From Escherichia phage vB_EcoM_FJ1: a DNA stretch of 64,000 bases. Positions 6,073 through 52,057 of the stretch are shown here, in pieces (positions within the stretch are counted from its first letter, which is position 1; each line of letters begins with the position of its first letter). The position numbers were made by a program, and so were the translations under genes. Under the pieces are notes generated by a model. It was given only the letters and a program-made list of their open reading frames with translations. It made no database searches and was not told the DNA's origin. The stretch is from the sequence record MZ170040.1; one strand, 5' to 3'.

Positions 6073-6126
6073 TCCTCATGTTATGTCAGTAAGACTACTA
6101 TAACACAACACGAGGGACTTGTAAAC
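6073..6126 (-). promoter_or_regulatory. early promoter/leader cassette (GTTTAC -35, TATAGT -10, GAGGA SD), copy A of a 54-bp perfect repeat
   Basis: 54 nt identical to 20347-20400; minus strand reads GTTTAC-N18-TATAGT...CATAACATGAGGA. Confidence 0.7.
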
Positions 6127-6486
6127 TACATTTTGAACTTTTTAGTACGCGTAATAGGCATGCGTCGATTTTATACTGTTTCATTGTTTGAAGAGCAGTA
6201 TCAAAAACAGCATTAATGACGCCAATTGGATTTCCACCCAAGTTTTTAAGTTTAACTAATGATAGTTTCTCATTAACACCTATCATTACGATATGCATCA
6301 TTTTGTCGCCTGGTTTAACGTTTTATCTGTATCACCGCCAGAGGTGTATGTACAAAATCTAAATCCAGGAAGCACGCTTTCTTCGCCGGCTTGAATAGCA
6401 AAAATTTGTGGTATTTTATGCTTAGGATTTAAGTTAACAACCGGCGCCGAAGCGCCGTCAAATAATTATGTAATAAGTTCCATGAT
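6098..6486 (-). pseudogene. decayed duplicate of the alt 5' region (about 125 codons; stop at codon 6 plus a frameshift)
   Basis: DNA and protein similarity to alt codons 1 to ~125 (compare 6301-6486 with 8400-8583); ATG at 6483 followed by TAA after 5 codons; 67-aa ORF 6098-6301 matches Alt residues ~65-125 in another frame. Confidence 0.7.
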
Positions 6487-8583
6487 TTATCCTTGAACGA
6501 ACTTGTAAGGCATGTTTGCAATATCTATGCAAGACGCAATAATTCCAAGAGATGATTCTACTTTCTGTTTAACATTTGATGAAACAAATGATGCAAAGTC
6601 AACTCTGTCTTCTATTTCAATATCACCTGTCATTGCAACCAATTCACCAGTTTCCATTAAATGGTCTCCATCATAGATTACCGATTCGGTGAGCTCTTCC
6701 GTGGTCATAACTTCAGCTTGAATGAGTTTTGTATTATTAGATGTTGTTCCGTCATTATTAGAAGCATCAGTTATTTTATTAACTTTGACCATCAATCCAC
6801 GCGGTAGAATAACTTCAGCTTCTGTTGCTATTCCGAGACTTCCTGGATATACAACATTAACTTTATGAGCTCCATCAATTGCCCATCCTATTTGAACTTT
6901 AACGTATTCAGGATTTTCTTTATACGCTCTTATTTCGTTTGGATTAATAGTTATTCCTTCTTCATTTTTATCAACTGTTAATTCATTGCGAGCTTCTGGT
7001 TCTAAAAGACCAATACCAGCATGTGTAATTCCAAAACGTCCAAAAATGATAGGAGTTAAAGAAGTAGATACAAAATTTCTGAAATAGAATACTTTATTTT
7101 TAACTAGTGCTTCGTATATAGGAGCAGTCATACTTTGAGCACGATAAACTGTAATGCCTTCTGGTATACGATCACCATTTTCAAAAGCAGAATCTAAATT
7201 AGTTATAGCAGCTTCAATTTCTTTTTCACTCATTACTTCATAACGTTCTGGATCATAACGACCCAAAAGAAGATTATTGATGTCAGTATATCCTGAACCG
7301 CAATACTCTCTAATGCCACGCTTTTGTGATGGAGTATATTTAGAACCATCACGGGCAATAGTAATATCAATCATTGGACCTGCACCAATTCCAGAGAAAC
7401 TATAAATCATTCTTTTGAGGAATTTAGTTTTTGTCGCGTTCCAGGAATTTTTAGTTATTTCTTCCCAGACTTCATCTGGCTGTCCTTTACGGGTTTTATT
7501 ATGTTTATCAAGCCAAGTATCTTTATATTCTTCAAATAATTGATTAACAGCTGCTGCGTATTTCTCTAAACATTTTATTGAAGTAGTCGGTTCATTTTTA
7601 ATCGCATTAAGAATTACATCTTTAATTTTTTCAGAAACTTCATTAACCTCACTTTTTGAAAAGAATTTATAGTCATAATGAAGTTCATCTGCAGTTCCTT
7701 CGGCAATGATTTTTGCTGCCTTAGTTTTAGAAGCTAATGAATTAATTCCAATTTTCATTTCTTCTGCTTCGGGAATTAAAGGTGCAGTAGCTGGTTTATT
7801 AAAATTAGCTGCTGTAGATTCATACTTCTGGAATAATTCACTTTCAAATCTAGAAGACTCTAATGATTGACTTTGTGCAATTGCTCTACGGGAAATTTTA
7901 ACTTTAACGATTACAGCTTGATCAGAACGTTTATCATTTTCTTGTGCAATAGATGCTGCAATTGCCTCATTTTTAGTTACTTGAGCTCCGGTATCTTTAT
8001 TGATATAAACATCACCGACCTTCGATTCAACTTTAGTAAAGAGCTCGGTACTAATTTCCGGAACTCCTGGAATGTCTTCTAGTGATACATTTTTGCGATG
8101 TATAAGAATATATGCATACTTTTTATCATAATCCCAGAGTTCCTTAAGAAGGACGTATCTGCCACCTGAACGACTACGGATAAGTCTATCAACAATAACT
8201 TGAATTTGTCGAGCTTGACCAGCAGTTTTAGACTTAAGAATACGGAGCATACAGGCATCAATTTTATACTGACGCATTGTTTGCATTGCAACAGTAAAAA
8301 CCGAATTGATATAATTAATTGGGCTTGGACCAAGACCTTTCAATTTAGCAATTGAACCTTTAGCGGTTAATGTAAAAGGAACAATATGCATCATTTTATC
8401 GCCCATCTTTAAATCACGATTAGTATCACCTCCAGATGTATAGGTACATAAACGAAAGCCTGGTTGTTCAATTGCATCATCAACATGAACTGAAAAAATT
8501 TGTGGTATTTTCTTCTTTGGATTTAAGTTTGTAATCGGAAGAGTAGTATCTTCGTCAAATAATTCTGTAATTAGTTCCATCAT
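6487..8583 (-). CDS. alt: Alt ADP-ribosyltransferase (virion-packaged)
   Basis: 698 aa (T4 Alt 682); position between gene 54 and gene 30; late promoter upstream. Confidence 0.85.
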   Translation of the reverse strand: MMELITELFDEDTTLPITNLNPKKKIPQIFSVHVDDAIEQPGFRLCTYTSGGDTNRDLKMGDKMMHIVPFTLTAKGSIAKLKGLGPSPINYINSVFTVAMQTMRQYKIDACMLRILKSKTAGQARQIQVIVDRLIRSRSGGRYVLLKELWDYDKKYAYILIHRKNVSLEDIPGVPEISTELFTKVESKVGDVYINKDTGAQVTKNEAIAASIAQENDKRSDQAVIVKVKISRRAIAQSQSLESSRFESELFQKYESTAANFNKPATAPLIPEAEEMKIGINSLASKTKAAKIIAEGTADELHYDYKFFSKSEVNEVSEKIKDVILNAIKNEPTTSIKCLEKYAAAVNQLFEEYKDTWLDKHNKTRKGQPDEVWEEITKNSWNATKTKFLKRMIYSFSGIGAGPMIDITIARDGSKYTPSQKRGIREYCGSGYTDINNLLLGRYDPERYEVMSEKEIEAAITNLDSAFENGDRIPEGITVYRAQSMTAPIYEALVKNKVFYFRNFVSTSLTPIIFGRFGITHAGIGLLEPEARNELTVDKNEEGITINPNEIRAYKENPEYVKVQIGWAIDGAHKVNVVYPGSLGIATEAEVILPRGLMVKVNKITDASNNDGTTSNNTKLIQAEVMTTEELTESVIYDGDHLMETGELVAMTGDIEIEDRVDFASFVSSNVKQKVESSLGIIASCIDIANMPYKFVQG

Positions 8584-8611: not shown

Positions 8612-8632
8612 AAATTAAAGGCCCGAAGGCCT

Positions 8633-8821
8633 TTAGTAATCTAGTGGTAAGAGAGTACGATATATTTCAAACTTTGGTCCTTTTTCATAGGCATCAAATG
8701 TTTCTGTAAATTTATTATAAGCGTATGCATCTACAAATTCGAGAATGACTTGTGATACAGAAGTAGAAACATCTCCACCTTCTTTTTGAGCAATGACAAT
8801 TGTTTCTAAGTAAGCTTTCAT
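8633..8821 (-). CDS. hypothetical small protein
   Basis: 62-aa ORF; ATGA start/stop overlap with gene 30; hairpin AAAGGCCCGAAGGCCTTT at its 3' end. Confidence 0.55.
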   Translation of the reverse strand: MKAYLETIVIAQKEGGDVSTSVSQVILEFVDAYAYNKFTETFDAYEKGPKFEIYRTLLPLDY

Positions 8822-12560: not shown

Positions 12561-12938
12561 TTAAATATCAAATTCGTTAAGAACTACATCAAAGATTGCT
12601 TCCAAGTGCTCAGGTTTAGCTTTGTTACTCAGAATATGACGAATCCAAGTTTTAACTAAGAGTTTACGATTAGCACCATTCCAGCAAGGATGAGTCCCTA
12701 AATCACGTTGACGGAAATCATCATCCAGAGCGATTTTAAAGTTGGAACCTTCCATCGTGATTGAAACCGTGATACCGTTTTCAAATCGCATATAAACGTA
12801 GTTAGGAGTCATATACTGTTCAATTTCGCATACTGATCCATTTTGATGTTTCCAAAGGCAGATGGTATCAATAGAACCTGCAATACCATTAGAAACATAT
12901 TTACGTTCAAAGTTAATGTAGTTCATTTTATTCTCCAA
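12561..12938 (-). CDS. hypothetical protein
   Basis: 125-aa ORF; hairpin GGGGCCGAAGCCCC after stop. Confidence 0.6.
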   Translation of the reverse strand: MENKMNYINFERKYVSNGIAGSIDTICLWKHQNGSVCEIEQYMTPNYVYMRFENGITVSITMEGSNFKIALDDDFRQRDLGTHPCWNGANRKLLVKTWIRHILSNKAKPEHLEAIFDVVLNEFDI

Positions 12939-12993
12939 GATGTTTAATTGCGGTACAGGTATATAATATCATGTCCTGTACCAAAGTAAACAA

Positions 12994-13326
12994 TTATTTT
13001 ACTACTTTCCAATGCTGCATGTCAAGTTTACCAACTTTTTTCATCTTCTCAATTAAGCGTTCGGCACGTTGGCGAGCTGTAACATAATACCATTCACCTA
13101 ATTCATTTTGTTCAATTTTTCCAACGATTACTGTATTCAATTCATAAATCCAACCAGTAAAGAAATTATGAACTTGAATTGTAAAGGTGAAATCTGTTCC
13201 CATACCTTCTGTTGTTTCTACTTCAATAATATCACCTTCAACTGCCATTAAGAACCACATAGTTTCATCATATTTACCATTGAAGCATTTAGTTTTAACT
13301 GCAGCGTTCAGATTAATCGTTTTCAT
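12994..13326 (-). CDS. hypothetical protein
   Basis: 110-aa ORF preceded by early promoter with stem-loop in spacer. Confidence 0.6.
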   Translation of the reverse strand: MKTINLNAAVKTKCFNGKYDETMWFLMAVEGDIIEVETTEGMGTDFTFTIQVHNFFTGWIYELNTVIVGKIEQNELGEWYYVTARQRAERLIEKMKKVGKLDMQHWKVVK

Positions 13327-13436
13327 TTTATTCTCCTTTGTTTGTGTAAGATAATACTATCACAAAGGAACCATACTGTAAACAACTTTATGCAATCTTT
13401 GGAAAATAAAAAAGGACTCCCGAAGGAGTCCTCAAC

Positions 13437-16261: not shown

Positions 16262-16494
16262 AGTACGCCATACACCCTTTGTGCTTCAACTAATCCATCA
16301 AAATCCAGTTTAAGATGCGATATTTGATCGCCATCACCTGGATTCACAATTACTAATACTGAACGAGGAGTTTCGGTAATAACACGAACCGATGTTTCAG
16401 GAAATCGTTCAGAAACCTTATTTACCAATTCCTGCGCAAATAGTTTAACTTTTTCTTGGAATTCTTTAACAGTAATTGGTTTTTCACTTAGCAT
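16258..16494 (-). CDS. hypothetical protein
   Basis: 78-aa ORF, overlaps neighbours by 4-7 nt. Confidence 0.55.
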   Translation of the reverse strand: MLSEKPITVKEFQEKVKLFAQELVNKVSERFPETSVRVITETPRSVLVIVNPGDGDQISHLKLDFDGLVEAQRVYGVL

Positions 16495-17015
16495 GTTGAT
16501 CCCAGCTCCTTACTTTCAACGTTTTTAACTAATTTGACAGAAACTAATTCAGCATCTTGAGTAATCATTACCGGGCCTTCTTCATACTCTTCAAGATATT
16601 CTAGAGCTTTCTTTTTAGCTTCTTCCTTCGTATCAGTTTGAGCATAGATATAAAACATACAACCAGTAATACCTACTACTTTCCACTTAATTTCTTTATC
16701 AGTTTTAATTTCAAATTTACTGACAGAATCATCTTTTTGAACTTCTTCGAAAAAAGAATATTCTAACATATAAGCAATTGAAAATAACGGGCTAACTTTA
16801 TAAGATTCGCCCATTACATCAACAGCTTTATACCAACAATCATCAATTTCGCGTTTAATGCTAATAACATTTTTCGCAGGATCTATTTTTACTTTAAATG
16901 AATTTTCCCCAATAAACTGGGCAATTCGTTTATTAGCCCCGCAAGTTTCATTAAAAATATCTTTATATCCAGCTTTAAAGCGATAAACCTTATCTTCTTC
17001 AAACCATTCGCTCAT
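16488..17015 (-). CDS. hypothetical protein
   Basis: 175-aa ORF with SD; early promoter upstream. Confidence 0.6.
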   Translation of the reverse strand: MSEWFEEDKVYRFKAGYKDIFNETCGANKRIAQFIGENSFKVKIDPAKNVISIKREIDDCWYKAVDVMGESYKVSPLFSIAYMLEYSFFEEVQKDDSVSKFEIKTDKEIKWKVVGITGCMFYIYAQTDTKEEAKKKALEYLEEYEEGPVMITQDAELVSVKLVKNVESKELGSTC

Positions 17016-17045
17016 TTCAATTTCCTCATTTGTTTTGGTAGAGCT

Positions 17046-17075
17046 ATAATATCACAACTCTACCGTAAAGTAAAC
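17046..17075 (-). promoter_or_regulatory. early promoter (GTTTAC-N18-TATTAT)
   Basis: Minus strand GTTTACTTTACGGTAGAGTTGTGATATTAT upstream of ORF 16488-17015. Confidence 0.55.
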
Positions 17076-17077
17076 TA

Positions 17078-17383
17078 TTAAATTGCTTTGAATTCTGATG
17101 TCTGTGATTCAAAGCGAATATCGCCTTTGATGACTAGCTCAGCATCAAGACCGAATACAACAATGATATGCGCGGAACCTGGATACAACGTGATGGCAAC
17201 AGAATCCACCTGGTCTGGAAGCAAAGTATTCAATACATGAGTCACTTGAGCGTGGATTCGAAGTTCAGCTGCATTATCAAGCTTTTCAAACATGTTATTA
17301 GCGATAATTTGGCTAAACACTACTTCTACGATTTTAGAGTAAGTCGGAAACATATTTACCTCACATAATTTTCTTCGAGCCAA
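17078..17383 (-). CDS. hypothetical protein
   Basis: 101-aa ORF. Confidence 0.55.
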   Translation of the reverse strand: MARRKLCEVNMFPTYSKIVEVVFSQIIANNMFEKLDNAAELRIHAQVTHVLNTLLPDQVDSVAITLYPGSAHIIVVFGLDAELVIKGDIRFESQTSEFKAI

Positions 17384-17746: not shown

Positions 17747-18971
<1,225 letters not shown>

Positions 18972-19845: not shown

Positions 19846-20342
19846 AAAGTTTTAATAACCTCTATAATATCGTCTTGAGAAAGACCGTTAATTAAAATAT
19901 GATGTTCAGCCGGAGATTTAGAAATTTTAAAGCATGCCTCAACATCTTCTGCCATATCCGATGCGCTACGATTTGGATTACTAATCCCAAGGCGGTGTTT
20001 TCCCGTCAAAGGATTAACGATGATATAGCATTTACAACTATTGATATGAACATTAGGCTGAGTCTGATTAATGAACACTTCACAATCATACTTAGCGAGT
20101 TGATTTTCTAAAAAGACTTTCATCTCTTCAACCGCATCAGGAAGCATATCACGGGCTTGCTCAAGACGACGATTTCGATATTCTTTAATGGTCGTTTTCC
20201 GCTTGACTTGCTTAGCTAAATCTTTCTTAAGATCAGTGATATATCCAACTCGACGATTTCCTTTGAATACCGAAATCCCATCTGTAGTATCACCGTATGC
20301 TTCAACGACCATTTCAGTAGTAATAAGTTGTAAATCCATCAT
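19836..20342 (-). CDS. alc: Alc, inhibitor of host transcription on cytosine-containing DNA
   Basis: 168 aa (T4 Alc 167); position between pseT.3 and rnlA. Confidence 0.8.
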   Translation of the reverse strand: MMDLQLITTEMVVEAYGDTTDGISVFKGNRRVGYITDLKKDLAKQVKRKTTIKEYRNRRLEQARDMLPDAVEEMKVFLENQLAKYDCEVFINQTQPNVHINSCKCYIIVNPLTGKHRLGISNPNRSASDMAEDVEACFKISKSPAEHHILINGLSQDDIIEVIKTLCN

Positions 20343-20346
20343 AAAG

Positions 20347-20400
20347 TCCTCATGTTATGTCAGTAAGACTACTATAACACAACACGAGGGACTTGTAAAC
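20347..20400 (-). promoter_or_regulatory. early promoter/leader cassette, copy B of the 54-bp perfect repeat
   Basis: Identical to 6073-6126; immediately upstream of alc. Confidence 0.7.
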
Positions 20401-20403
20401 AGC

Positions 20404-21991
<1,588 letters not shown>

Positions 21992-22018: not shown

Positions 22019-23197
22019 TTAAAAATATTTTTTAAAACTCATCATAACTTTATCATCAACGTCATTATCAATCTGTGCAACAAGGTAAGATGACAGTTCT
22101 ACTTCTTGTGGCGCGGATTGAACATTATCAGAATTAAGATATTCACGAATCCAAGGATATGGATGTTTAACCGGAGCATCGGTAATTGGGCATGGAAGAC
22201 CACACTGTTTCATACGAGATACAGTTAAGTAATCAATAAAGCTCCACATGCTATTTGTATTTAATCCAGGAACATCGCCATCTTTAAATAAATGAACTGC
22301 CCAATCTTTTTCTTGGCGGTTAACTTCCATGAAAATATCAACTGCTTCTTGTTCACACTCTTGAGCAATTTTAACCCATTCATCACCATCAGTACCGGAT
22401 TGAAGCTGACGAATAATATATTGAGTGCCTTTAAGGTGAAGCTGCTCATCACGTGCAATGAACTTCATAATCTTGGCATTACCTTCCATGATTTCCATGT
22501 TCTTATGGAAGTTAAAGGTACATGCGAAAGATACATAAAAACGAATAGCTTCTAAGGCATTAATAACGTGCAAACAGAGGTAAAGAGATTTCATTAAAGC
22601 ACGTTTAGCTTCGGCTTCTTGTTTAATAGCTCGGTTTAAACGAAAGACAGCATCAGGAGATTCTTTAGCTAGTTCTACAAATTCTTTAGCATTTTCCCAT
22701 TCACGGGTTTTAATCAGAACATCATCATAATAACGCCCAATGGATTCAGCACGTTTCATAATAGCTTCATCTAATACAATCTCATCAAATACCTTCGATG
22801 GATCAGTATAAAGATTTCGCATGATATGTGTATATGAACGGCTGTGAATAGTTTCACTAAAAGTCCACGTAGCAACCCATGTATCAAGGCTTGGGTCTGA
22901 AATTAATGACATAAGTACAGCAGACGGCGCACGACCCTGAATGCTATCCAAAAGTGATTGATACTTCAAGTTGTTAGTAAAAATATTCTGCTGATACTGA
23001 GGAAGCTTATTAAACTGTGCAGCATCCATCATTAAGTTTACTTCTTCGGGACGCCAGAAAAATGATAAGGACTTCTCTGTAAGTTCTTCAAATACTCGAT
23101 GCCGTTGAATATCATAACGCGCAATACCAAGACCTGAACCAAAAAACATAGGTTCTTTTAAAACATCAACTGGATTTGTATTAAAAACTGTGCTCAT
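22019..23197 (-). CDS. nrdB: ribonucleotide reductase small subunit, intron-less
   Basis: 392-aa uninterrupted ORF; R2 ferritin-like size and position. Confidence 0.9.
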   Translation of the reverse strand: MSTVFNTNPVDVLKEPMFFGSGLGIARYDIQRHRVFEELTEKSLSFFWRPEEVNLMMDAAQFNKLPQYQQNIFTNNLKYQSLLDSIQGRAPSAVLMSLISDPSLDTWVATWTFSETIHSRSYTHIMRNLYTDPSKVFDEIVLDEAIMKRAESIGRYYDDVLIKTREWENAKEFVELAKESPDAVFRLNRAIKQEAEAKRALMKSLYLCLHVINALEAIRFYVSFACTFNFHKNMEIMEGNAKIMKFIARDEQLHLKGTQYIIRQLQSGTDGDEWVKIAQECEQEAVDIFMEVNRQEKDWAVHLFKDGDVPGLNTNSMWSFIDYLTVSRMKQCGLPCPITDAPVKHPYPWIREYLNSDNVQSAPQEVELSSYLVAQIDNDVDDKVMMSFKKYF

Positions 23198-23248
23198 AAA
23201 TTTTCCGCTTAGTTAATAGTTGGTGACTCGTCCATGAGTCAAATTATA

Positions 23249-25513
23249 TCATAATTTACAGGATGAACAATCTTCAGCTTTTGGAGTTTCTATTTCATAA
23301 TCATCAGTACCAGAACCATCGCGGGTATTATGATAATAGAAGTTTTTAATGCCATAATACCATCCGTATAGCATGTCATCAATCATTATTGACATTGGAA
23401 CCTTTCCTTTTGGAAAAATCTGCGGGTCATAATATGTATTCGCCGAAGCTGATTGACATACCCATTTCAGCATAATAGCTACCTGCGTAAGATAAGGTTT
23501 ATTACCTTTCTTAGCTAATTTCCATGTATAGTCGTAAAGGTCTATGTTATGCTCAATATTGGGCACGACTTGATTAAAGGAGCCCTCTTTTGATTCTTTA
23601 ACAGAGACTGGTCCACGTGGAGGCTCGATACCGTTTGTACTGTTAGAAACTTGGGAAGATGACTCACATGGCATAAGTGCTGATAATGTGCTATTACGGA
23701 TGCCAAAGAGCTTAAGGTCTTCCCGCAGCGCCGACCAGTCACAAACGTATTTTGGAGCTGCGATTTGGTCAATCTTTTTATTGTACCAGTCGATAGGTAA
23801 TTCGCCTCGAGACCAACGAGTGTCTGAATAATATTCGCAAGGTCCTTTTTCTTTGGCGAGCTTAATGGATGCTTTAATGAGTCCATACTGTAATCTCTCA
23901 AATAGTTCATGTGTTAAATCGTTAGCATCTTCATAAGAAGCAAAGTTACTTGCCAGCCAAGCTGCATAGTTAGTAACACCTACACCAAGGTTACGACGCT
24001 TTTTAGCTTTTTCTGCTTCAGGAACTGGATATCCTTGGTAATCCAACAGATTATCAAGAGCGCGAACTTGAACTTCTGCTAATTCATTAATTTTATCTTG
24101 GTCTTGCCAATCGAAGTTATCCAGCACAAATGCAGATAACGTGCACAATCCAATTTCAGCATCAGGGCTATTCACATCATTTGTTGGAATAGCAATTTCA
24201 CAGCACAAGTTACTCTGACGAATAGGTGCCTTTTCACGAATAAACGGAGTATAGTTATTCGTATTATCAATGAACTGCACATAAATCCTTGCTGTTCCTG
24301 AACGTTCAGTCATGAGCAATTCAAATAGTTCACGGGCTTTAATACGCTTTTTACGAATATTAGGGTCTTTTTCTGCTGCTTCGTATAATTCACGGAAACG
24401 GTCTTGATCTTTAAAATAAGAATAATAAAGCTCGCCACCCATTTCATGTGGACTGAACAAAGTAATGTAATCGTTCTTTCCGAATCGTTCCATCATTAGA
24501 TCATTCAGCTGAACACCATAATCCATGTGACGAATGCGGTTTTCTTCTACGCCTTTGTTATTTTTCAAAACGAGAAGATTTTCAACTTCCAAATGCCAAA
24601 TAGGATAATAAGCAGTAGCAGCGCCGCCACGAATTCCACCCTGTGAGCATGATTTAACAGCAGTCTGAAAATGTTTCCAAAAAGGAATAACACCAGTATG
24701 GCGTACTTCACCCATGCCAATCTTAGAACCTTCAGCACGAATCATACCAACGTTAATACCAATTCCAGCGCGTTTAGAGATATATTCAACAATTGAAGCG
24801 GAAGCCTTATTGATAGACTTTAATGAATCACCTGCCTCAATAACAACACATGAACTGAACTGTCGAGTCGGAGTACGACAACCAGCCATAATAGGAGTTG
24901 GCAATGAAATCTGTCGGGTTGATACTGCTTCATAAAAACGGATAACATGTTTTAATCTATCAACAGGTTCATCTTGATGCAATGCCATTCCAATAGCCAT
25001 AAATGCAAACTGTGGAGTTTCATAAATTTGACCAGTGGTTTTATCTTTAACTAGATATTTTTCTTTTAATTGCATCGCCCCGGAATAAGTAAATTCCATA
25101 TCCCGTTCGTGCTTAATTTTTGATTCTAAAAATGTAATTTCTTCTGCTGAATATTTTGACAATAATTCAGGGTCATATTTACCTTCATTTACACAATAAG
25201 AAATATGGTCAATAAATGAACGTGGTTCATACTGCCCATAAACATGCTTACGAAGAGCAAACATTAAACAGCGTGCAGCTACATATTGATAATCAGGTTC
25301 TTCAACCGAAATAGAATTCGCAGCGGCCTTAATGACAATAGTCTGAATATCATCAGTTGTCATTCCATCACGGAGATAAGATTTAATATTTTCATATAAT
25401 TCATAAGGATCTACTGATGTTCCTTCAGCTGCCCAAGATAAAACTTTAATAATTTTTTGCGGGTCAAAGCTCTGAGAAACACCACTACTTTTGATAACAT
25501 TAATTAATTGCAT
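23249..25513 (-). CDS. nrdA: ribonucleotide reductase large subunit
   Basis: 754 aa as T4 NrdA. Confidence 0.95.
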   Translation of the reverse strand: MQLINVIKSSGVSQSFDPQKIIKVLSWAAEGTSVDPYELYENIKSYLRDGMTTDDIQTIVIKAAANSISVEEPDYQYVAARCLMFALRKHVYGQYEPRSFIDHISYCVNEGKYDPELLSKYSAEEITFLESKIKHERDMEFTYSGAMQLKEKYLVKDKTTGQIYETPQFAFMAIGMALHQDEPVDRLKHVIRFYEAVSTRQISLPTPIMAGCRTPTRQFSSCVVIEAGDSLKSINKASASIVEYISKRAGIGINVGMIRAEGSKIGMGEVRHTGVIPFWKHFQTAVKSCSQGGIRGGAATAYYPIWHLEVENLLVLKNNKGVEENRIRHMDYGVQLNDLMMERFGKNDYITLFSPHEMGGELYYSYFKDQDRFRELYEAAEKDPNIRKKRIKARELFELLMTERSGTARIYVQFIDNTNNYTPFIREKAPIRQSNLCCEIAIPTNDVNSPDAEIGLCTLSAFVLDNFDWQDQDKINELAEVQVRALDNLLDYQGYPVPEAEKAKKRRNLGVGVTNYAAWLASNFASYEDANDLTHELFERLQYGLIKASIKLAKEKGPCEYYSDTRWSRGELPIDWYNKKIDQIAAPKYVCDWSALREDLKLFGIRNSTLSALMPCESSSQVSNSTNGIEPPRGPVSVKESKEGSFNQVVPNIEHNIDLYDYTWKLAKKGNKPYLTQVAIMLKWVCQSASANTYYDPQIFPKGKVPMSIMIDDMLYGWYYGIKNFYYHNTRDGSGTDDYEIETPKAEDCSSCKL

Positions 25514-28750: not shown

Positions 28751-28819
28751 CTTAGCAAGCTTTAATCAAAAGATATAAACAGACCAACATAACTGCTGCC
28801 ATAATATAAGGTGCGAACA
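28751..28819 (-). CDS. candidate 22-aa hydrophobic peptide (MFAPYIMAAVMLVCLYLLIKAC)
   Basis: ATG with GGAG SD; its stop overlaps the SD of the downstream gene; promoter upstream. Confidence 0.35.
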
Positions 28820-28879
28820 TTTTCTTTTCTCCATTAGTTTTGATAGGGTAATAGTATCACACTACTACTCTTCTGTAAA

Positions 28880-29245
28880 CTACTTTTTGAAAGTTTTTCG
28901 CAAAAGTTCAATGATTTCATCTACATTGTTTTCGTCAACAATGCAGTGAATTTTTGTTACGCCAGAAACCTTGTCTTTGACTTCATCTTCTTCAGAAGTC
29001 GGTTCTTTATACTCACGAAAACAATGAAATTCATCTTCGCAGACGTTGAAGTAAAAATGCTTTCCATTGGCGCATTCTACGTGTTTTACTACTTTAAATC
29101 CATCAGCAAAGAAAACTTCTTTAACTTCAAACCATCCGCCATTTTCTTGAATAGCTTTAACTATTAATGAATTAGAACGCGGGCGATAATTAATAAATGT
29201 ATCAATAAGTCTTGGAACAAGTTCGTACTTTTTATCAATATACAT
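28880..29245 (-). CDS. hypothetical protein
   Basis: 121-aa ORF; hairpin AGGGGCT...AGCCCCT after stop. Confidence 0.55.
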   Translation of the reverse strand: MYIDKKYELVPRLIDTFINYRPRSNSLIVKAIQENGGWFEVKEVFFADGFKVVKHVECANGKHFYFNVCEDEFHCFREYKEPTSEEDEVKDKVSGVTKIHCIVDENNVDEIIELLRKTFKK

Positions 29246-29289: not shown

Positions 29290-29541
29290 TTACTGTTCAA
29301 TCAATCCCATGTAAAATTCTGCATCTTCAGCATCCATACCATCACAGTATTCATTAGCCATAAATCGTTCAAGAACTTCTAAAGGACCTTCAATAACAAT
29401 AGAAAAATTGCAATAATTGGGATCATCATGAATACTTGTGATACTAAGTTCAGGATAACGATTACGAATAATTTCTTCAATATATTCAAAATCAACGATG
29501 TCAATATCAACTTTAGCCATATTGTTTTCCTCTTTAATCAT
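29290..29541 (-). CDS. hypothetical acidic protein
   Basis: 83-aa ORF downstream of promoter cassette. Confidence 0.55.
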
Positions 29542-29584
29542 CAGCAGTATTGCCGATAGTTGTATAGTACCATAAAGCTTTATG

Positions 29585-29623
29585 CTTGTAAACCGTTTTG
29601 TGAAAAAATTTTTGAAATAAAAA
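29585..29623 (-). promoter_or_regulatory. early promoter cassette with A/T-rich upstream element, member of a repeat family
   Basis: Near-identical to 47525-47565 and similar to 51165-51200; minus strand has the A/T-rich element then GTTTAC. Confidence 0.6.
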
Positions 29624-29624
29624 A

Positions 29625-29643
29625 GGGGACCTCTAGGGTCCCC
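29625..29643 (-). terminator. intrinsic terminator after gene 32
   Basis: GGGGACCCTAGAGGTCCCC hairpin followed by T-run on minus strand. Confidence 0.75.
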
Positions 29644-29665
29644 AATTAATTAGTAATATAATCTA

Positions 29666-30625: not shown

Positions 30626-31258
30626 TCATAGCTGGCATAATTCGCAATACTCTGGGTCTTCGAGAGGTATCCAACCTGAGTTGAAATACTTTACCATCGA
30701 TTTAGCAGTTGTATCAGTTATATTTATATTACCTTTAACTCTTCGCCATCCAGGAGTTTTACCGTACAGATTAGAGGATAATAATAACACATAATTCTCG
30801 TAAGCAATATGAGATAATTTCCAAGACTCTATATTAGCTCGTGATGTTTTCCAAGGTCTAAAATCGTCACGGTTCATATAATTAGCCAATCTCATATGCT
30901 CTCTAACTTCCGGGTCTTTGGCTGGATGAGTTTCACCACTCACACCAAATCCACCACCAGCATATACCAGATTAAAATAGTCTGGATTATCTCTGGCATT
31001 TACTTCAAGTTGGTATTTTCGTTCTGCTTCAATAACATCCAAGTCATCATCAATTTGAATTATTTTAACGCTCGGTTTTTGAAGCATTAGCGCATTCAAA
31101 AATCTTTTTTGTTTACATGAGCTCCAGTATTCCTTTCCGGAAGAGTCATATATTATTCCGTTCTCAAATGAGCAATTTAATTTACTACCGATATAGTAGT
31201 ATGGCGGAGTCTTATTTTTGACACGGTCTTCAAATGTAAACCAATATACTATATTCAT
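30626..31258 (-). mobile_element. GIY-YIG homing endonuclease gene (seg-like) between genes 32 and 59
   Basis: 210 aa; N-terminal IVYWF...YYIGSK and THPAKDPEVREH resemble I-TevI/Seg GIY-YIG motifs; same site as T4 segG. Confidence 0.75.
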
Positions 31259-31259
31259 A

Positions 31260-32503: not shown

Positions 32504-33421
32504 TCAAAATTCATTAATGCTATTAGTTAATTTAGAAAGACCCGCTTTTACAAAATATGAATAAATTTTGCCACGCGGTGGTAATTTATATGAATTATAG
32601 TAATTCACAATGTTTGAAGCAATATTATCAGGAATATAATCAAAATCAATTAGAACTAAATTTTCTTTATAACGATTATATTCAGATTCTGTGAGAAGCA
32701 CCTTAGCTTGCTCACGGTCATTAGCAATAGCTTCAACGATTGAAGTTTTCATTGAAGGAGTTCGTTCACCTTCAACTCTGGTAAACCAAAAGTCAGATCG
32801 TACTTTAACTGAAGCAACGTTATCCTTTTTGTCGCCTTTAAGGATTTTAGTCATACAGTCAATTTCAGCAGAACCGCTTTTAATTTTAACCCATTTCTTG
32901 TGCATCGGTGACCATTGCTTAACATTTGGGTATTTGTGAAGTTGAGTAAAGTCACCATCCGATGAAATGATTAAAATCTTGTGTCCTTCTAAAGAGAACT
33001 TTTTAACAAGAACAGCAATGTGGTCATCTGCTTCATACTTATCAATATCCATAACAATGTATGGCATATAAGCTTTCAATTCATCTATAACTTTATGGCT
33101 GGATTCAAAATAACCTTCCCAGTCCCAAGTCGATTCTTCTCGTGCCTTTCCACGGTTTTTCTTGTAATAATACGCGAAATCACGACGCCAATATCCAGAT
33201 TTCGCGTTATCAATACACAGTACAATTTTAGTGTATCCAAGAGCTTTTGCTTTTTTGACATTAAACTTAATTGAGTTCAATATCAAATGACGAACCATTG
33301 ATAAATTAATTTTTTCTTTATTTGGGAAGTTTACCAAAGCAGTTGAAAGCGCAATTTGACTAAAGTCAATTAAGCAGATTCCTTCTTTGTAATCTTCATC
33401 CAGCATCATTTCTAAATCCAT
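32504..33421 (-). CDS. rnh: RNase H (5'-3' exonuclease, FEN family)
   Basis: 305 aa from ATG 33421 (MDLEMML...); track start is a TTG extension; GAGG SD. Confidence 0.9.
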   Translation of the reverse strand: MDLEMMLDEDYKEGICLIDFSQIALSTALVNFPNKEKINLSMVRHLILNSIKFNVKKAKALGYTKIVLCIDNAKSGYWRRDFAYYYKKNRGKAREESTWDWEGYFESSHKVIDELKAYMPYIVMDIDKYEADDHIAVLVKKFSLEGHKILIISSDGDFTQLHKYPNVKQWSPMHKKWVKIKSGSAEIDCMTKILKGDKKDNVASVKVRSDFWFTRVEGERTPSMKTSIVEAIANDREQAKVLLTESEYNRYKENLVLIDFDYIPDNIASNIVNYYNSYKLPPRGKIYSYFVKAGLSKLTNSINEF

Positions 33422-33450
33422 ATGAACCTCGTTCAATTAGTGAGATTTCT

Positions 33451-33480
33451 ATTATATACCATCCGAATCTTAAAGTAAAC
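33451..33480 (-). promoter_or_regulatory. early promoter for rnh (GTTTAC-N18-TATAAT)
   Basis: Minus strand GTTTACTTTAAGATTCGGATGGTATATAAT. Confidence 0.6.
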
Positions 33481-33525: not shown

Positions 33526-36500
33526 ATGGCCGAGATTAAAAGAAAGTTCAGAGCAGAAGATGGTCTGGACGCAGGTGGCGATAAAATAATCAACGTAGCT
33601 TTAGCTGATCGTACCGTAGGAACTGACGGTGTTAACGTTGATTACTTAATTCAAGAAAACACAGTTCAACAATACGATCCAACTCGTGGATATTTAAAAG
33701 ATTTTGTAATCATTTATGATAACCGCTTTTGGGCTGCTATAAATGATATTCCAAAACCGGCAGGAGCTTTTAATAGCGGACGCTGGAGAGCATTACGTAC
33801 CGATGCTAACTGGATTACAGTCTCATCTGGTTCATATCAATTAAAATCGGGTGAAGCAATTTCGGTTAACACCGCAGCTGGAAATGACATCACGTTTACT
33901 TTACCATCTTCTCCAATTGATGGTGATACTATCGTTCTCCAAGATATTGGAGGAAAACCTGGAGTTAACCAAGTTTTAATTGTAGCTCCAGTGCAAAGTA
34001 TTGTAAACTTTAGAGGTGAACAGGTACGTTCAGTACTAATGACTCATCCAAAGTCACAGCTAGTTTTAATTTTTAGTAATCGTCTGTGGCAAATGTATGT
34101 TGCTGATTATAGTAGAGAAGCTATAGTTGTAACACCAGCGAATACTTATCAAGCGCAATCCAACGATTTTATCGTGCGTAGATTTACTTCTGCTGCACCA
34201 ATTAATGTTAAACTTCCAAGATTTGCTAATCATGGCGATATTATTAATTTCGTCGATTTAGATAAACTGAATCCACTTTATCATACAATTGTTACTACAT
34301 ACGATGAAACGACTTCAGTACAAGAAGTTGGAACTCATTCCATTGAAGGCCGTACATCGATTGACGGTTTCTTGATGTTTGATGATAATGAGAAATTGTG
34401 GAGATTGTTTGACGGGGATAGTAAAGCACGTTTACGTATCATAACAACTAATTCAAACATTCGTCCAAATGAAGAAGTTATGGTATTTGGTGCGAATAAT
34501 GGAACAACTCAGACAATTGAGCTTAAGCTTCCAACTAATATTTCTGTTGGTGATACTGTTAAAATTTCCATGAATTACATGAGAAAAGGACAAACAGTTA
34601 AAATCAAAGCTGCTGATGAAGATAAAATTGCTTCTTCAGTTCAATTGCTGCAATTCCCAAAACGTTCAGAGTATCCACCTGAAGCTGAATGGGTGACTGT
34701 TCAAGAATTAATTTTTAACGGTGAAACTAATTATGTTCCAGTTTTGGAGCTTGCTTACATAGAAGATTCTGATGGAAAATACTGGGTTGTACAGCAAAAT
34801 GTTCCAACTGTAGAAAGAGTTGATTCTTTAAATGATTCTACTAGAGCGAGATTAGGCGTAATTGCTTTAGCTACACAAGCGCAAGCTAATGCCGATTTAG
34901 AAAATTCTCCACAAAAAGAATTAGCAATTACTCCAGAAACGTTAGCTAATCGTACTGCTACTGAAACTCGTAGAGGTATTGCAAGAATAGCAACTACTGC
35001 TCAAGTGAATCAGAACACCACATTCTCTTTTGCAGATGACCTTATCATTACTCCTAAAAAGCTGAATGAAAGAACTGCTACAGAAACTCGTAGAGGTGTT
35101 GCTGAAATTGCTACGCAGCAAGAAACTAATGCAGGTACTGATGATACTACAATCATTACTCCTAAAAAGCTTCAAGCTCGTCAAGGTTCTGAGTCATTAT
35201 CTGGTATTGTAACCTTTGTATCTACCGCAGGAGCTACTCCAGCTTCTAGTCGTGAATTAAATGGTACAAACGTTTATAATAAAAACACTAATAATTTAGT
35301 TGTTTCGCCTAAAGCTCTGGATCAGTATAAAGCTACTCCAACGCAACAAGGTGCAGTAATTTTAGCAGTTGAAAGTGAAGTAATTGCTGGGCAGAGTCAA
35401 GAAGGATGGGCAAATGCGGTTGTAACGCCAGAAACGTTACATAAAAAGACATCAACTGATGCAAGAATTGGTTTAATTGAAATTGCTACGCAAAGTGAAG
35501 TTAATACAGGAACTGATTATACTCGTGCAGTCACTCCTAAAACTTTAAATGACCGTAAAGCAACTGAAAGTTTAAGTGGTATAGCTGAAATTGCTACACA
35601 AGTTGAATTCGACGCAGGCGTCGACGATACTCGTATCTCTACACCATTAAAAATTAAAACTAGATTTAATAGTACTGATCGTACTTCTGTTGTTGCTCTA
35701 TCTGGATTAGTTGAATCAGGAACTCTCTGGGACCATTATACCCTTAATATTCTTGAAGCAAATGAGACACAGCGTGGTACACTTCGTGTAGCTACACAGG
35801 TTGAAGCTGCTGCAGGAACATTAGATAATGTTTTAATAACTCCTAAAAAGCTTTTAGGTACTAAATCTACCGAATCGCAGGAAGGTGTTATTAAAGTTGC
35901 AACTCAGTCTGAAACTGTGACTGGAACGTCAGCAAATACTGCTGTATCTCCAAAAAATTTAAAATGGATTGTGCAGAGTGAACCTACTTGGGCAGCTACT
36001 ACTGCGATAAGAGGCTTTGTTAAAACTTCATCTGGTTCAATTACATTCGTTGGTAATGATACAGCTGGTTCTACGCAGGACTTAGAGCTATACGAGAAAA
36101 ATAGCTATGCAGTATCACCATACGAATTAAACCGTGTACTCGCTAACTATTTGCCATTAAAAGCAAAAGCTGCTGACGCAAATTTATTAGATGGCCTAGA
36201 TTCATCTCAGTTCATTCGTAGGGACATTGCACAGACGGTTAATGGTTCACTAACCTTAACCCAGCAAACGAATCTGAGTGCCCCTCTTGTATCATCTAGT
36301 ACTGCTACGTTTGGTGGATCAGTTTCGGCAAATAGTACATTAACTATTTCTAATACTGGAACGGCAACTCGTCTGATTTTTGAGAAAGGACCTCAAACTG
36401 GAACTAACCCAGCACAGACGATGACTATCAGAGTTTGGGGAAATCAGTTTGGCGGCGGTTCAGATACAACACGTTCTACTGTATTTGAAGTTGGTGATGA

Positions 36501-44734: not shown

Positions 44735-45007
44735 TTATTTGTTCGTATACATCTCTAGATATCGATATACACCCTCAAAACCCTCGTTGAATTCGTCGAT
44801 GAGGGTTTTCTTATCTTCTTGAGTTAATTCAGAAACAATTTTACGGAATGAATTCTGATTTAATTTTCTACCTTCATGCGTTACTCCAATCTCATTCAGA
44901 AATGCAATAAAATTAGCACGATTCTCAACAATATCTTCTCTGGAAAATTTAATCAAAATAGACGCAACAGTAATAATTTCACGAACTGTATCAATATTTT
45001 TATTCAT
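44735..45007 (-). CDS. asiA: anti-sigma-70 factor AsiA
   Basis: 90 aa as T4 AsiA. Confidence 0.9.
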   Translation of the reverse strand: MNKNIDTVREIITVASILIKFSREDIVENRANFIAFLNEIGVTHEGRKLNQNSFRKIVSELTQEDKKTLIDEFNEGFEGVYRYLEMYTNK

Positions 45008-45019
45008 TAACTATACCAC

Positions 45020-45172
45020 TCAATTAGTTGACTTTGTTATAATATCATCAGACGCTTGATTTGTAAACCGGTCTGTGTTATTTTCTTCAAAAATTTTTTC
45101 TACGAATTCCTTGAACGACTCACGTTCCTGAGCTGCATTATGCTCGATTACCTTTTCAAGATTATGACTCAT
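45020..45172 (-). CDS. hypothetical small protein (asiA.1 position), 50 aa
   Basis: ATG overlaps arn stop (ATGA); below the 60-aa track cut-off. Confidence 0.45.
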   Translation of the reverse strand: MSHNLEKVIEHNAAQERESFKEFVEKIFEENNTDRFTNQASDDIITKSTN

Positions 45173-46826: not shown

Positions 46827-47462
46827 TCACAGTTCAGATGCTACAGTGATTACAGCTTCAATGTTTTCTGCCGAGCGTTTAATGTCAAGATACACATTAC
46901 CGTTTTTAGCGATTTTACATGACATTCCGATATCAGTAAATTTCTGAATATGATGTTCCATCATTTTGTATCCAAAAATTCGCATATTTCCATTGTTGTT
47001 AATTTCAAAATTACGAATTCCGTGAGTGCGTTTTTCTAAAATGGCAAGATAATTACTACGATAAGTTTCAACCTTTTTAAGAACAAATCCATTTTCATCT
47101 AAAAGTTTTAACATGAGGTCTTTATCTTCTTCCATATCAGAAGTAATCTCACGAGCTTTACGAGTTGCTCGTTTTTTCAGCAGTTCTGGAGCATTTTCTT
47201 GTGCGTATAAAGTTGCTGCATTTGAAATAATATCCTGAGCTTCACCAGTAATGATTAATCCATCACCAGATTTCTCCACCAGGCCTTTTTTAATCAATAC
47301 CCCAATATTACTATTAACTACTGCGTTACCTAAATCTGGATGCACCTCACGAACTTCTGCAGCTGTAATGAAATCTTTCTTAGCAATGGTAATTAAAATC
47401 GCAGCAGTTTTTTCATTCAGAACATCGTTAGAAGCTTTGATGATGTAAGTTACTTTAGACAT
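46827..47462 (-). CDS. motA: middle-transcription activator MotA
   Basis: 211 aa as T4 MotA. Confidence 0.9.
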   Translation of the reverse strand: MSKVTYIIKASNDVLNEKTAAILITIAKKDFITAAEVREVHPDLGNAVVNSNIGVLIKKGLVEKSGDGLIITGEAQDIISNAATLYAQENAPELLKKRATRKAREITSDMEEDKDLMLKLLDENGFVLKKVETYRSNYLAILEKRTHGIRNFEINNNGNMRIFGYKMMEHHIQKFTDIGMSCKIAKNGNVYLDIKRSAENIEAVITVASEL

Positions 47463-47524
47463 TTTCTAATCTCCGTAATTCTGTATCAGTAGTTGATAGT
47501 TGTATAGTACCACAGTATGCTTTG

Positions 47525-47565
47525 GTTGTAAACCGTTTTGTGAAAAAATTTTTGAAATAAAAAAA
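47525..47565 (-). promoter_or_regulatory. early promoter cassette upstream of motA, member of a repeat family
   Basis: Near-identical to 29585-29623. Confidence 0.6.
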
Positions 47566-47566
47566 G

Positions 47567-47584
47567 GGGAGCCGAAGCTCCCCA
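47567..47584 (-). terminator. intrinsic terminator hairpin
   Basis: GGGGAGC-TTCG-GCTCCCC followed by T-run on minus strand. Confidence 0.7.
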
Positions 47585-47588
47585 AAAA

Positions 47589-47735: not shown

Positions 47736-49064
47736 TCATTTGATTTCCTCTAAATCTTTGGTGTATTCTGTAACTACATCAGTAGTTTTCCAATATTCGT
47801 TTTCTTCTTTCTTAGCTTTAGCTTCTTCAGCAAGTTTCTTTGCTTCGTCGGAAGTCATATGAAAAATATTCATTCCGACTAGTTTATCAACATAAGAAGA
47901 ATACATATCGATTTTCGAAAGTTCTTCGGTCAGTTCTTTACGAGTTTTACCCTGCACAACGATTTCACCTGAAATTACTTTCTTAATGAAATGCGCCTTG
48001 GCAAAGGCTAAACGAAAAGCTGATTCAGTTTCTTTAATTTTGTTATCAATTCGTTTTTGAACATAAGTTTTACGAACTTCAACAAAGTCTTTAATTAAAT
48101 CAACTACGTTATCGTAAACTTGTAGTTTTCCTTTCTCATTAATAACCGTAATATTCTGAGAACGACGCTCAATCAACCCGAAGTCTTTCATGATTTTTGC
48201 ATGGCGTTCTTCTTCATTATCACTCAAAGAGTATTCTTTGCGGAATTTAATTTTAAAGCCAAAACCATGCTCACCACAAGCATCATCCCATGTAATGAAG
48301 CCTTTATCTTCAAGCGGGTCTAAGATTTTACTCACGTAAGTTTCACGATCATACTTATACGGAATCTCAGTGATATTCATTTGAGTTCGTGAAGTAAACT
48401 TGTACGTTCCACGAATTTCATATTGACCGTCAATTTCAACGACTTCACCGCGAAATTCTGGGAATTCTACCTTCGGTTTAGTTACTTTCTTTCCTTGAAG
48501 AGCTTGTAGTACAGCTTTCTTGACAGAAGAAACACTATGAGGAAGAATGTAAGTTGCATAACCAGTTGCAATACCGGAAACACCATTAAGAAGAACAGTA
48601 GGAATAATAGGCAAATAGAAAGCAGGCGGAATGTGTTCTTTATCTTGATGTACTGGAGCATATTCAGTATCTTTATACACGTTATAGAAATTTTTACTTA
48701 CACGAGCAAAAATATAACGACTTGCCGCTGCCTTTTGGACAGTACGAGAACCAAAGTTTCCTTGACCATCTAACAGAGGAAAGTTATTATTCCAAGTGTT
48801 AGCCATCAAAGCGCCCGCATCTTGTGCAGAGTTTTCGCCATGGTGATATCCAAGGTCCGCTACACCACCTGCAATAGAAGCAAGTTTGTGAAACTTATCT
48901 TTATTTCCTCGTGCTAAATCAAGGGCTCGAGCAATAACAAATCGTTGAACTGGCTTAAATCCATCAATCATATTTGGAATAGCACGATTTTCAACCGTGT
49001 ACATAGCATAAGCCAATGCTTCATTATCAATGATACTTTTTAAATCACGATTATTCAGTTGCAT
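47736..49064 (-). CDS. 52: DNA topoisomerase II medium subunit gp52
   Basis: 442 aa as T4 gp52; GyrA-like. Confidence 0.95.
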   Translation of the reverse strand: MQLNNRDLKSIIDNEALAYAMYTVENRAIPNMIDGFKPVQRFVIARALDLARGNKDKFHKLASIAGGVADLGYHHGENSAQDAGALMANTWNNNFPLLDGQGNFGSRTVQKAAASRYIFARVSKNFYNVYKDTEYAPVHQDKEHIPPAFYLPIIPTVLLNGVSGIATGYATYILPHSVSSVKKAVLQALQGKKVTKPKVEFPEFRGEVVEIDGQYEIRGTYKFTSRTQMNITEIPYKYDRETYVSKILDPLEDKGFITWDDACGEHGFGFKIKFRKEYSLSDNEEERHAKIMKDFGLIERRSQNITVINEKGKLQVYDNVVDLIKDFVEVRKTYVQKRIDNKIKETESAFRLAFAKAHFIKKVISGEIVVQGKTRKELTEELSKIDMYSSYVDKLVGMNIFHMTSDEAKKLAEEAKAKKEENEYWKTTDVVTEYTKDLEEIK

Positions 49065-52019: not shown

Positions 52020-52057
52020 AATTTTTCCTTAAAACAAAAGGGCCGAAGCCCTTTATT

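Follow-up and report, generated by a model that had tools for sequence, protein, structure and literature searches.

Our analysis makes it probable that the repeated cassettes found along a 64,000-nt stretch of Escherichia phage vB_EcoM_FJ1 DNA (record MZ170040.1; the whole stretch is called the window below) are sigma-70 early promoters of a Tequatrovirus, about half of them with a hairpin, and that the alc-type pair among them has been homogenised by gene conversion together with selection. The cassettes themselves are real and ordinary, and elements of this kind are already known. A preliminary description of the window had recognised them correctly, and its reading of them as early promoters joined to a stem-loop, of the promoter-early-stem-loop (PeSL) kind, is the published one (PMC2839356, PMC4122927). 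For the most part the results confirm textbook T4 biology, that is, early promoters and the published PeSL idea. Two points are modestly new. In a panel of genomes, the promoter units of alc and alt.-3, which lie 14 kb apart, show signs of concerted evolution. In addition, the hairpins of many early promoters straddle the -10 and the start site, and some are paired with the Shine-Dalgarno sequence, which suggests that they mask ribosome-binding sites on read-through RNA and do not act as terminators; this would refine the PeSL model. What the sequences show directly is the anatomy, conservation, fold statistics and population pattern of the cassettes; their activity as promoters (judged from the T4 literature), the start site, the role of the hairpins in RNA and the mechanism of conversion are inferred.

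The cassettes have the anatomy of T4 early promoters

By its matches the window is Tequatrovirus DNA. Samples of 2 kb match ~500 T4-like phage records at 95-99%, and the window is 92.5-98.7% identical to T4 over long collinear blocks and ~83-87% identical over two short ones. Collinearity with T4 extends from gene 29 through rIIB and on into rIIA-dda.

A search with the pattern GTTTAC-N17-19-TANNNT gave 16 matches, all on the minus strand, compared with 2.45 expected on both strands; none of 100 shuffled sequences reached 16. A weight matrix trained on these sites found one extra site, at 58792, with the degenerate -35 ATATAC, and found no site on the plus strand of the 64-kb window. The consensus of the sites (16 pattern matches and the degenerate one) is GTTTACA...TGTGnTAnnAT. 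Each of the near-identical or related cassettes named in the preliminary description coincides with one of these promoter sites. Most of them also emerged as repeats: families D1, D2, D5 and D6 recover 29546-29645, 47486-47585, 50627-50704, 51133-51210 and 58745-58822, together with 13343-13406, 17046-17077, 28840-28903, 55652-55683 and 60458-60489. The frd.3 and motA cassettes share ~38 identical nt (29585-29623 versus 47525-47563).

In the sites, a -35 GTTTAC(A/T) and a -10 TAnnAT, often with TGn before it, are separated by 17 nt, counted from TTTACA. Runs of A and T resembling UP elements lie upstream of the -35, e.g. TTTCAAAAATTTTTTCACAAAACG at 29593 and 47533. The sites are located upstream of early genes, in the same orientation and at the positions of their T4 counterparts: 17 of 17 have a positional orthologue in T4, with a core identity of 0.9-1.0. 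The genes behind them are alt.-3, 30.7, 30.8, cd.2, alc, frd.1, frd.3, rnh, asiA, motA, ndd.4, ndd.6, rIIA.1, cef, motB and motB.2. The T4 record names an early promoter, Pe133295, at the orthologue of 17075, and the Lutter record has promoters at 6097-6126, 12966-12994, 13357-13386, 17049-17078 and 20374-20403. A literature search for a usable T4 start-site map found none. The anatomy agrees with that of T4 early promoters, a UP/-35/TGn/-10 class with an extended consensus that serves the host polymerase (Hinton 2010, PMC2988021). Motifs, spacing, strand and downstream early genes are the same here and nothing essential differs; relative to T4 there are a few substitutions, and a different small ORF stands behind some promoters in FJ1. 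By analogy with the T4 literature, the sites would be transcribed immediately after infection by unmodified host polymerase.

All of the sites described here are on the minus strand. The early promoter and leader of gene 30.7 occupy 12923-12991. At 13323-13433 the gene 30.8 early promoter (-35 at 13383) lies 29 nt beyond an intrinsic terminator (13412-13433). The gene 32 terminator (29625-29643), an A/T-rich UP-like stretch and the frd.3 early promoter (-35 at 29593) make up 29517-29643; similarly, a terminator (47566-47583), an A/T-rich UP-like stretch and the motA early promoter (-35 at 47533) make up 47459-47583. Other early promoters precede a small ORF and frd.1 (28817-28880), ndd.4 (50613-50674), rIIA.1 (55623-55681), motB (59305-59382) and motB.2 (60427-60487; T4 position ~8.2 kb), and those upstream of rnh (33418-33480) and asiA (45004-45068) are pattern matches with a T4 orthologue. 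The promoter at 51120-51180 precedes an ORF at ~50900-51122, which in T4 is cut to 8 codons before ndd.6, and the early-type promoter with the degenerate -35 lies upstream of the cef region (58710-58792). One pattern match, antisense inside gene 34 (33979-34008), has the lowest matrix score (18.4) and no TGn; its status as a promoter is doubtful, and the match may be due to chance.

The orthologue of T4 Pe133295, a misc_feature of the T4 record between cd.2 and cd.3, is found at 17012-17075, where it would drive an ORF at 16488-17015. That ORF and another variably present one (18651-18971) had no match in Pfam; both are annotated, so far without confirmation, as putative homing endonucleases in phage Bas41.

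Identical 54-bp cassettes precede alc and alt.-3

As the preliminary description had reported, 6073-6126 and 20347-20400 form a perfect repeat: the two copies are identical at 54 of 54 nt (family D9 of the repeat search), and their homology stops at both ends of the repeat. An exact repeat of 54 nt would be vanishingly unlikely to arise by chance in 64 kb of ~35% G+C. On the minus strand the 54-mer reads GTTTAC AAGTCCCTCGTGTTGTGT TATAGT AGTCTTACTGACATAACAT GAGGA and contains, in order, the -35, a 17-nt spacer (counted from TTTACA), TGn, the -10, a short leader and the Shine-Dalgarno sequence. The two copies lead into different genes, whose start codons are 4-8 nt further on.

The copy at 20347-20400 lies upstream of an ORF that Pfam identifies as ALC. 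Its -35 GTTTAC is at 20395-20400, its -10 TATAGT at 20371-20376 and its probable start near 20364; the arms of a hairpin described below are at 20376-20389 (5′) and 20348-20361 (3′), the latter including the Shine-Dalgarno GAGG at 20348-20351. The Lutter record annotates a promoter here, and the T4 counterpart is 136283-136336. The copy at 6073-6126 lies upstream of alt.-3 (Pfam DUF5498) and has its -35 at 6121-6126, overlapped by the stop codon of the alt.-2 remnant, its -10 at 6097-6102 and hairpin arms at 6102-6115 and 6074-6087; the T4 counterpart is 123040-123093.

In T4 the copy at 123040-123093 has one mismatch to the 54-mer and that at 136283-136336 has none. In total the 54-mer matched 740 places in 448 phage records, with a perfect copy in 257 records. 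In IMG/VR and JGI metagenomes, exact and degenerate searches with the 54-mer gave only 6-8 loci each, with both copies on one contig in few cases, and for this reason GenBank phage records were used as the comparison panel. An assembly artefact or a very recent duplication is ruled out by the presence of the pair in T4 and in hundreds of records. Since the pair is in T4 and these 448 records, the duplication is old. The proposal of ‘recent copying or gene conversion’ made in the preliminary description therefore fails as to recency; its second half is supported by the variants that the two copies share (p ~0.006), as described below.

Two kinds of stem-loop accompany the promoters

The stem-loops are of two kinds. 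At three cassettes (13383, 29593 and 47533) a G+C-rich hairpin with a T-run is located 29, 32 and 33 nt upstream of the -35, respectively; these are terminators that end the preceding transcription unit. Hairpins of the other kind straddle the -10: spacer sequence forms the 5′ arm, the first transcribed bases form the 3′ arm, and the loop contains the -10. RNA folding of 16 cassettes, each from its -35 as far as the start codon, gave such a hairpin with a z-score of -3 or lower in 8 of the 16: the 54-mer copies (-4.7 and -5.5), 12991 (-3.0), 17075 (-3.6), 50674 (-4.9), 58792 (-5.7), 59382 (-3.2) and 60487 (-4.9). When only 36 nt were folded, beginning at the -35 and ending past the -10, the hairpins were mostly weak, and z was ~-0.1 for the 54-mer. 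An interim reading of ‘no stem-loop’, drawn from folding the spacer only, was dropped, as folding from the -35 to the start codon places the 3′ arms in the leader. The stem-loops of the preliminary description are thus real, but they are seen only when this longer stretch is folded.

In the 54-mer the sense RNA forms a hairpin of 18 bp (-22.0 kcal/mol), in which the spacer is paired with the leader and the Shine-Dalgarno sequence. Positions 12-25 pair with 40-53 and positions 28-31 with 36-39, giving 18 pairs of which 3 are G.U, and the Shine-Dalgarno GAGG (50-53) is paired in silico with CCTC in the spacer (12-15). From the -35 to the start codon the two copies fold as RNA with -23 and -24.4 kcal/mol; folded as DNA, the 54-mer gives -9.6 kcal/mol (z -4.3). 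The Shine-Dalgarno sequence is contained in the 3′ arm of five hairpins, namely both 54-mer copies, 50674 (15 bp, spacer paired with GGAGG), 60487 (spacer paired with GAGGA) and, weakly, 13383, by pairing of its spacer with the Shine-Dalgarno sequence. Among the others, the -10 is straddled at 12991, where the hairpin is conserved in HX01, at 59382 and, by a 12-bp hairpin, at 17075; at 58792 it is enclosed by a 13-bp inverted repeat. The hairpin at 55681 lies inside the spacer (TACCACA/TGTGGTA, z -2.9).

We found no U-run behind the -10-straddling hairpins, and they are therefore not ordinary intrinsic terminators. For the 54-mer hairpin this candidate role was ruled out, as neither copy is followed by a proper U-run. 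A search of the window against Rfam gave no family at gathering thresholds, and no described RNA family overlaps the cassettes.

The hairpins look selected at the level of sense RNA

The 54-mer folds much better as sense than as antisense RNA (-22.0 versus -12.8 kcal/mol), and all 17 natural haplotypes of the panel keep a fold of -19 to -24 kcal/mol. The 12 substitutions observed are less destabilising than random ones (p 0.006 for all, 0.05 with transitions only and 0.0002 outside the two hexamers). In the alignment of haplotypes 99.3% of the cells are paired. Four pairs have changed on one side with pairing kept (C-G to U.G twice, G.U to A-U twice), and two haplotypes lack one inner pair (29-38); no two-sided compensatory change was present among the Tequatrovirus haplotypes aligned.

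The evidence for selection is stronger across genera than within Tequatrovirus. In the hairpin at 17075, pairing is 97.6% across Tequatrovirus, Mosigvirus HX01 and Dhakavirus JS98, and two pairs have changed in a compensatory manner (A-U to G-C and G-C to A-U). A motB-type promoter is present at another locus in HX01 and JS98, and there its hairpin carries compensatory changes, GGGACC/GGTCC having become GGGAGC/GCTCC. At alc, the promoter of JS98 keeps the pairing with the Shine-Dalgarno sequence using a different sequence (CTCCTCAT/ATGAGGAG), and the promoter of HX01 is without such pairing. Taken together, the hairpins look selected, and selection appears to act on the sense RNA.

A possible function in masking ribosome-binding sites

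Transcription from the 54-mer is expected to start ~7 nt after the -10, at position 37, a position within the hairpin. A transcript of the promoter itself would lack the 5′ arm, leaving the ribosome-binding site free, and the hairpin would therefore form only in read-through transcripts from upstream. Read-through RNA arriving from rnlA, or from the late gene alt plus alt.-2, would fold and its ribosome-binding site would be masked. In that case alc and alt.-3 would need their own early promoter in order to be translated. The function of the hairpin may be this masking, or it may otherwise mark or attenuate read-through RNA.

A precedent for masking combined with a promoter inside the hairpin is known from T4 genes e, soc, 49 and I-TevI (PMC3014915). 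There, as in the 54-mer, the Shine-Dalgarno sequence lies in a helix whose 5′ arm is upstream of the start of the internal promoter. Only transcripts from the internal promoter have a free ribosome-binding site in those genes, and the same is predicted here. Pairing of the Shine-Dalgarno sequence in upstream-initiated RNA was found in silico for the 54-mer, Pe50674, Pe60487 and Pe13383. The two arrangements differ in timing: in the known genes the internal promoter is late (TATAAATA) and the masked RNA is early or middle, whereas the internal promoter here is of the early sigma-70 type. By analogy, hairpins of the 54-mer type are predicted to block translation of the long transcript; if this is true, they would be the early-promoter counterpart of the late-promoter switch of e, soc, 49 and I-TevI.

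The idea can be put more generally: many T4-type early promoters would sit in an RNA hairpin that pairs spacer with leader and Shine-Dalgarno sequence, translation would occur only from transcripts of the own promoter and be blocked on early, middle or late read-through RNA, and such units would be copied and homogenised between loci, as at alc and alt.-3. In this general form we would sooner doubt the proposal than endorse it. The Shine-Dalgarno sequence is in only five of the hairpins, and one function may not fit all; for hairpins that fall short of it, attenuation, processing or stability of read-through RNA are candidate roles.

PeSLs were defined in RB49 and phi1, where one RB49 stem-loop lowers expression of a downstream reporter (Arbiol 2010, PMC2839356), and were extended to T4 and PST with the consensus TTTACW-N17-TAYWAT and the example of ndd.4/.5 (Comeau 2014, PMC4122927). 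The cassettes of FJ1 are the same composite of AT-rich region, strong early promoter, stem-loop, Shine-Dalgarno sequence and start codon, a promoter with a stable stem-loop in a unit of ~100 bp that ends with the Shine-Dalgarno sequence and start codon. They too occur in variable early regions, with occasional crossovers within cassettes, and the T4/PST consensus fits them. The differences concern the stem-loops. The published ones of PST and T4 are just upstream of the promoter, whereas most of the significant hairpins here straddle the -10 and the start site; an upstream terminator is present at only three cassettes. As to a terminator or attenuator role of the stem-loop, T-runs are present at those three upstream hairpins, and no U-runs come after the -10-straddling ones. 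The stems in RB49 PeSLs are of the G-run/C-run type; those in FJ1 are not. In addition, the association of cassettes with indels is modest in the FJ1 window.

Signs of concerted evolution in the alc and alt.-3 cassettes

JS98 and HX01, which belong to other genera, do not carry the repeat at the two loci. They have early promoters at both positions, of different sequence, and orthologues are slightly more alike than paralogues. At alc, the JS98 promoter is similar to the 54-mer; at alt.-3, both phages have promoters of another type, like Pe55681 and Pe51180, which argues that in the Tequatrovirus lineage the resident alt.-3 promoter was replaced by an alc-type unit of promoter, hairpin and Shine-Dalgarno sequence. 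The copies would have been kept alike from then on by ectopic homologous recombination (gene conversion) and by selection on promoter and hairpin.

We compared both copies in 19 Tequatrovirus genomes, in which both loci are polymorphic. Variants of the alc copy are 10C, 13T, 16A, 27C, 29A, 32A and 33A; those of the alt.-3 copy are 11T, 15T, 16A, 29A, 32A, 33A/C, 34T and 40A. The two loci have four variants in common, and these co-occur in the same genome in T2 (32A), SYGD1 (33A), G28 (29A and 32A) and SHFML-11 (16A). Both copies thus share derived variants, 5 in all, in 4 of the 19 genomes, which are related and not phylogenetically independent (permutation p ~0.006; p 0.011 for the number of sharing genomes). 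The copies differ by 1.44 nt within a genome compared with 1.88 nt between genomes (p 0.003), and no fixed difference between the alc and alt.-3 copies was found in the 19 genomes. This within-genome closeness, the absence of fixed differences and the other promoters of JS98 and HX01 support the gene conversion put forward in the preliminary description.

The preliminary description had also named a competing account, in which the identity reflects constraint on a shared leader. Diversity in the element is 0.021 (alc) and 0.042 (alt.-3), and that of flanking coding sequence is 0.0185-0.047 at alc and 0.031 downstream of alt.-3. The element is not less diverse than its flanks, and the identity is therefore not explained by constraint alone. 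These sequence comparisons support ongoing gene conversion, over ~54 bp of homology, as the process that keeps the copies alike; in such a phage, recombination needs only ~50 bp of homology (as cited in Arbiol 2010, PMC2839356). Selection could have favoured some of the shared variants more than once, in parallel: with 29A the -10 becomes the consensus TATAAT, and with 16A a G.U pair becomes A-U. The alc/alt.-3 pair offers a natural read-out of ectopic recombination over ~50-bp homologies in T4-like phages.

Alternative explanations and gene-content differences

If every base of the 54-mer were constrained by an extended consensus, the copies could be identical by functional convergence with no exchange of DNA. 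T4 early promoters do share an extended consensus beyond the -35 and -10, and both promoter and hairpin are under selection, but other pairs of cassettes share far less than 54 of 54 nt, different sequences serve at both loci in JS98 and HX01, and the polymorphism of the element equals that of its flanks. Convergence also has to account for loop variants (32A, 33A) that appear in both copies of the same genome, and we regard it as very unlikely. We give a similarly low probability to the idea that the inverted repeats act as DNA, as cruciforms or as protein sites that open the promoter or target a recombinase. The -10 is in the loop of an inverted repeat in many cassettes, and a DNA-binding protein at the stem-loops was speculated on by Arbiol et al. 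(PMC2839356). Against action as DNA are the G.U-type pairs, which exist in the sense strand only (3 of 18 pairs in the 54-mer, 3 of 12 in Pe17075), an antisense fold that is 9 kcal/mol worse, and natural substitutions (C-to-U, G.U-to-A-U) that preserve pairing only in RNA.

A broader alternative, that gene-content differences in these regions are driven mainly by mobile PeSL cassettes, whose recombination would excise or insert small genes, possibly via mini-circles, is conceivable, though we lean against it. Such shuffling is published and was experimentally tested for RB49 and phi1, and it has been proposed for T4 and PST, including the ndd.4/.5 region. When the window was compared with T4, Lutter and NIC06P2/BCH953P2 over most of its length and with 10 further genomes over 2.5-21 kb, we counted ~29 indel or replacement events; ~7 of them have an edge inside a cassette, although cassettes cover ~3% of the window. 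This excess speaks only partly for shuffling: small accessory ORFs stand directly behind the promoters anyway, so that proximity of indels to cassettes is expected without causation. Only two events resemble a crossover between cassettes. In T2, gene 30.8 and Pe12991 are missing and the junction is in GGAGAATAAAATGAA, common to the two leaders; in T4, the orthologue of Pe51180 (the ndd.6 promoter) has the same core with a swapped leader of the Pe47533 type. Most of the indels are introns, mobE, segG, a tail-fibre replacement, the microhomology deletion in alt.-2 and in-frame ORF deletions, and none of the ~29 events is an insertion flanked by two intact cassettes. The alc copy has conserved surroundings: of 504 records, 496 cover 80% or more of the 2 kb around it. 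Next to the alt.-3 copy is the variable alt.-2 region (91/542). The suggestion in the preliminary description that cassettes mark synteny breakpoints thus holds for the ~7 events with an edge in a cassette, two of them crossover-like, and not for most indels, which have other causes. In the reading that we favour, the repeated leader and Shine-Dalgarno sequences serve as occasional crossover points at which small early genes are removed or swapped.

The remaining events are diverse. The nrdB and td introns, mobE, segG, the gene 60/mobA insertion and replacements in the 37/38 tail fibre account for several. A 1690-bp deletion in the alt.-2 paralogue ends 11-19 nt upstream of the -35 and has 9 bp of microhomology. 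Near cassettes, in-frame internal deletions of the first ORF, with its start and end kept, are seen in T4 before ndd.6 and in the FJ1 window after Pe58792, and at 28755-28827 a deletion has occurred between two Shine-Dalgarno sequences. Further deletions are unrelated to promoters, and internal ORF deletions lie at microhomologies of 7-16 bp.

Promoter types and their loci

Like promoter types were found at different loci in different genera, at 2020 in the Mosigvirus HX01, at 17596 and 2984 in the Dhakavirus JS98, and at 59382, 55681 and 51180 in the window. The motB-type core of the window lies near pseT.1 in both HX01 and JS98, and the alt.-3 promoter of JS98 is similar to two early promoters of the window, Pe55681 and Pe51180 (named by the position of the -35 element). 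This distribution suggests repeated movement of promoter units from one locus to another.

The early promoter Pe58792 (58745-58792) carries ATATAC instead of GTTTAC, and its spacer repeats the leader of the same promoter in inverted orientation (CATCAGTAGTTGAT and a sequence like ATCAACTACTGATG). The result is a 13-bp hairpin around the -10 element. Near-identical hairpins of the type AAAGGCC(C/T)GAAGGCCTTT, which make up repeat family D10, were located at 52037-52054, 8616-8635 and 57552-57567; the one at 52037 is terminator-like when read on either strand. An additional early-promoter-like match is found on the minus strand at 33979-34008, antisense within tail-fibre gene 34 and ∼1.6 kb from the annotated position of oriG. 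This match is conserved in T4 (0.97), yet it has the lowest score among the sites and is without TGn. Gene 34 also contains internal direct repeats of ∼30-70 nt at 34927-35852 (families D3, D7 and D12); the proximal tail-fibre protein is known to be repetitive, and these repeats are that structure.

Duplications and deletions near the promoters

In phage G28, 352 bp are duplicated in tandem (17848-18252, equivalent to 20199-20550 of the window). The duplicated unit includes the alc promoter cassette, with alc represented by its 5′ end and rnlA by its 3′ end, and all three G28 copies of the 54-mer, the 54-bp early-promoter cassette, carry the derived variants 29A and 32A. A second alt gene is represented in the window by the remnant alt.-2/alt.-1 at 6098-6486 and 8423-8583. 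Most Tequatroviruses have a full alt paralogue of 2058 bp at this locus; an internal deletion of 1690 bp is present in the window, T4, Lutter and SYGD1, with a 9-bp overlap at the junction (6137-6145). The duplicated 5′ end of alt corresponds to repeat families D4 and D20.

Downstream of Pe51180 lies an ORF of ∼74 codons (50896-51132). Only 8 codons are left of its T4 counterpart (48029-48040), which retains the initial codons as well as the final five and overlaps the ndd.6 start. In the window itself, the first ORF after Pe58792 has collapsed in-frame in a similar way relative to NIC06P2 (window 58712-58719).

Introns and mobile genes

Differences in introns and mobile genes map to 22521, 23197-23253, 26352, 30635-31259 and 56029-56081. 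Four elements present in T4 are missing from the window, namely the nrdB intron, mobE, the I-TevI-bearing td intron and the gene 60/mobA insertion. An Rfam search of the window returned no intron and no other RNA family. The segG gene is kept in the window and is absent from Lutter, NIC06P2 and BCH953P2. Two ORFs, at 16488-17015 and 18651-18971, are variably present across Tequatroviruses, T4 having neither; a Pfam search matched neither of the two, and both are annotated in phage Bas41 as putative homing endonucleases.
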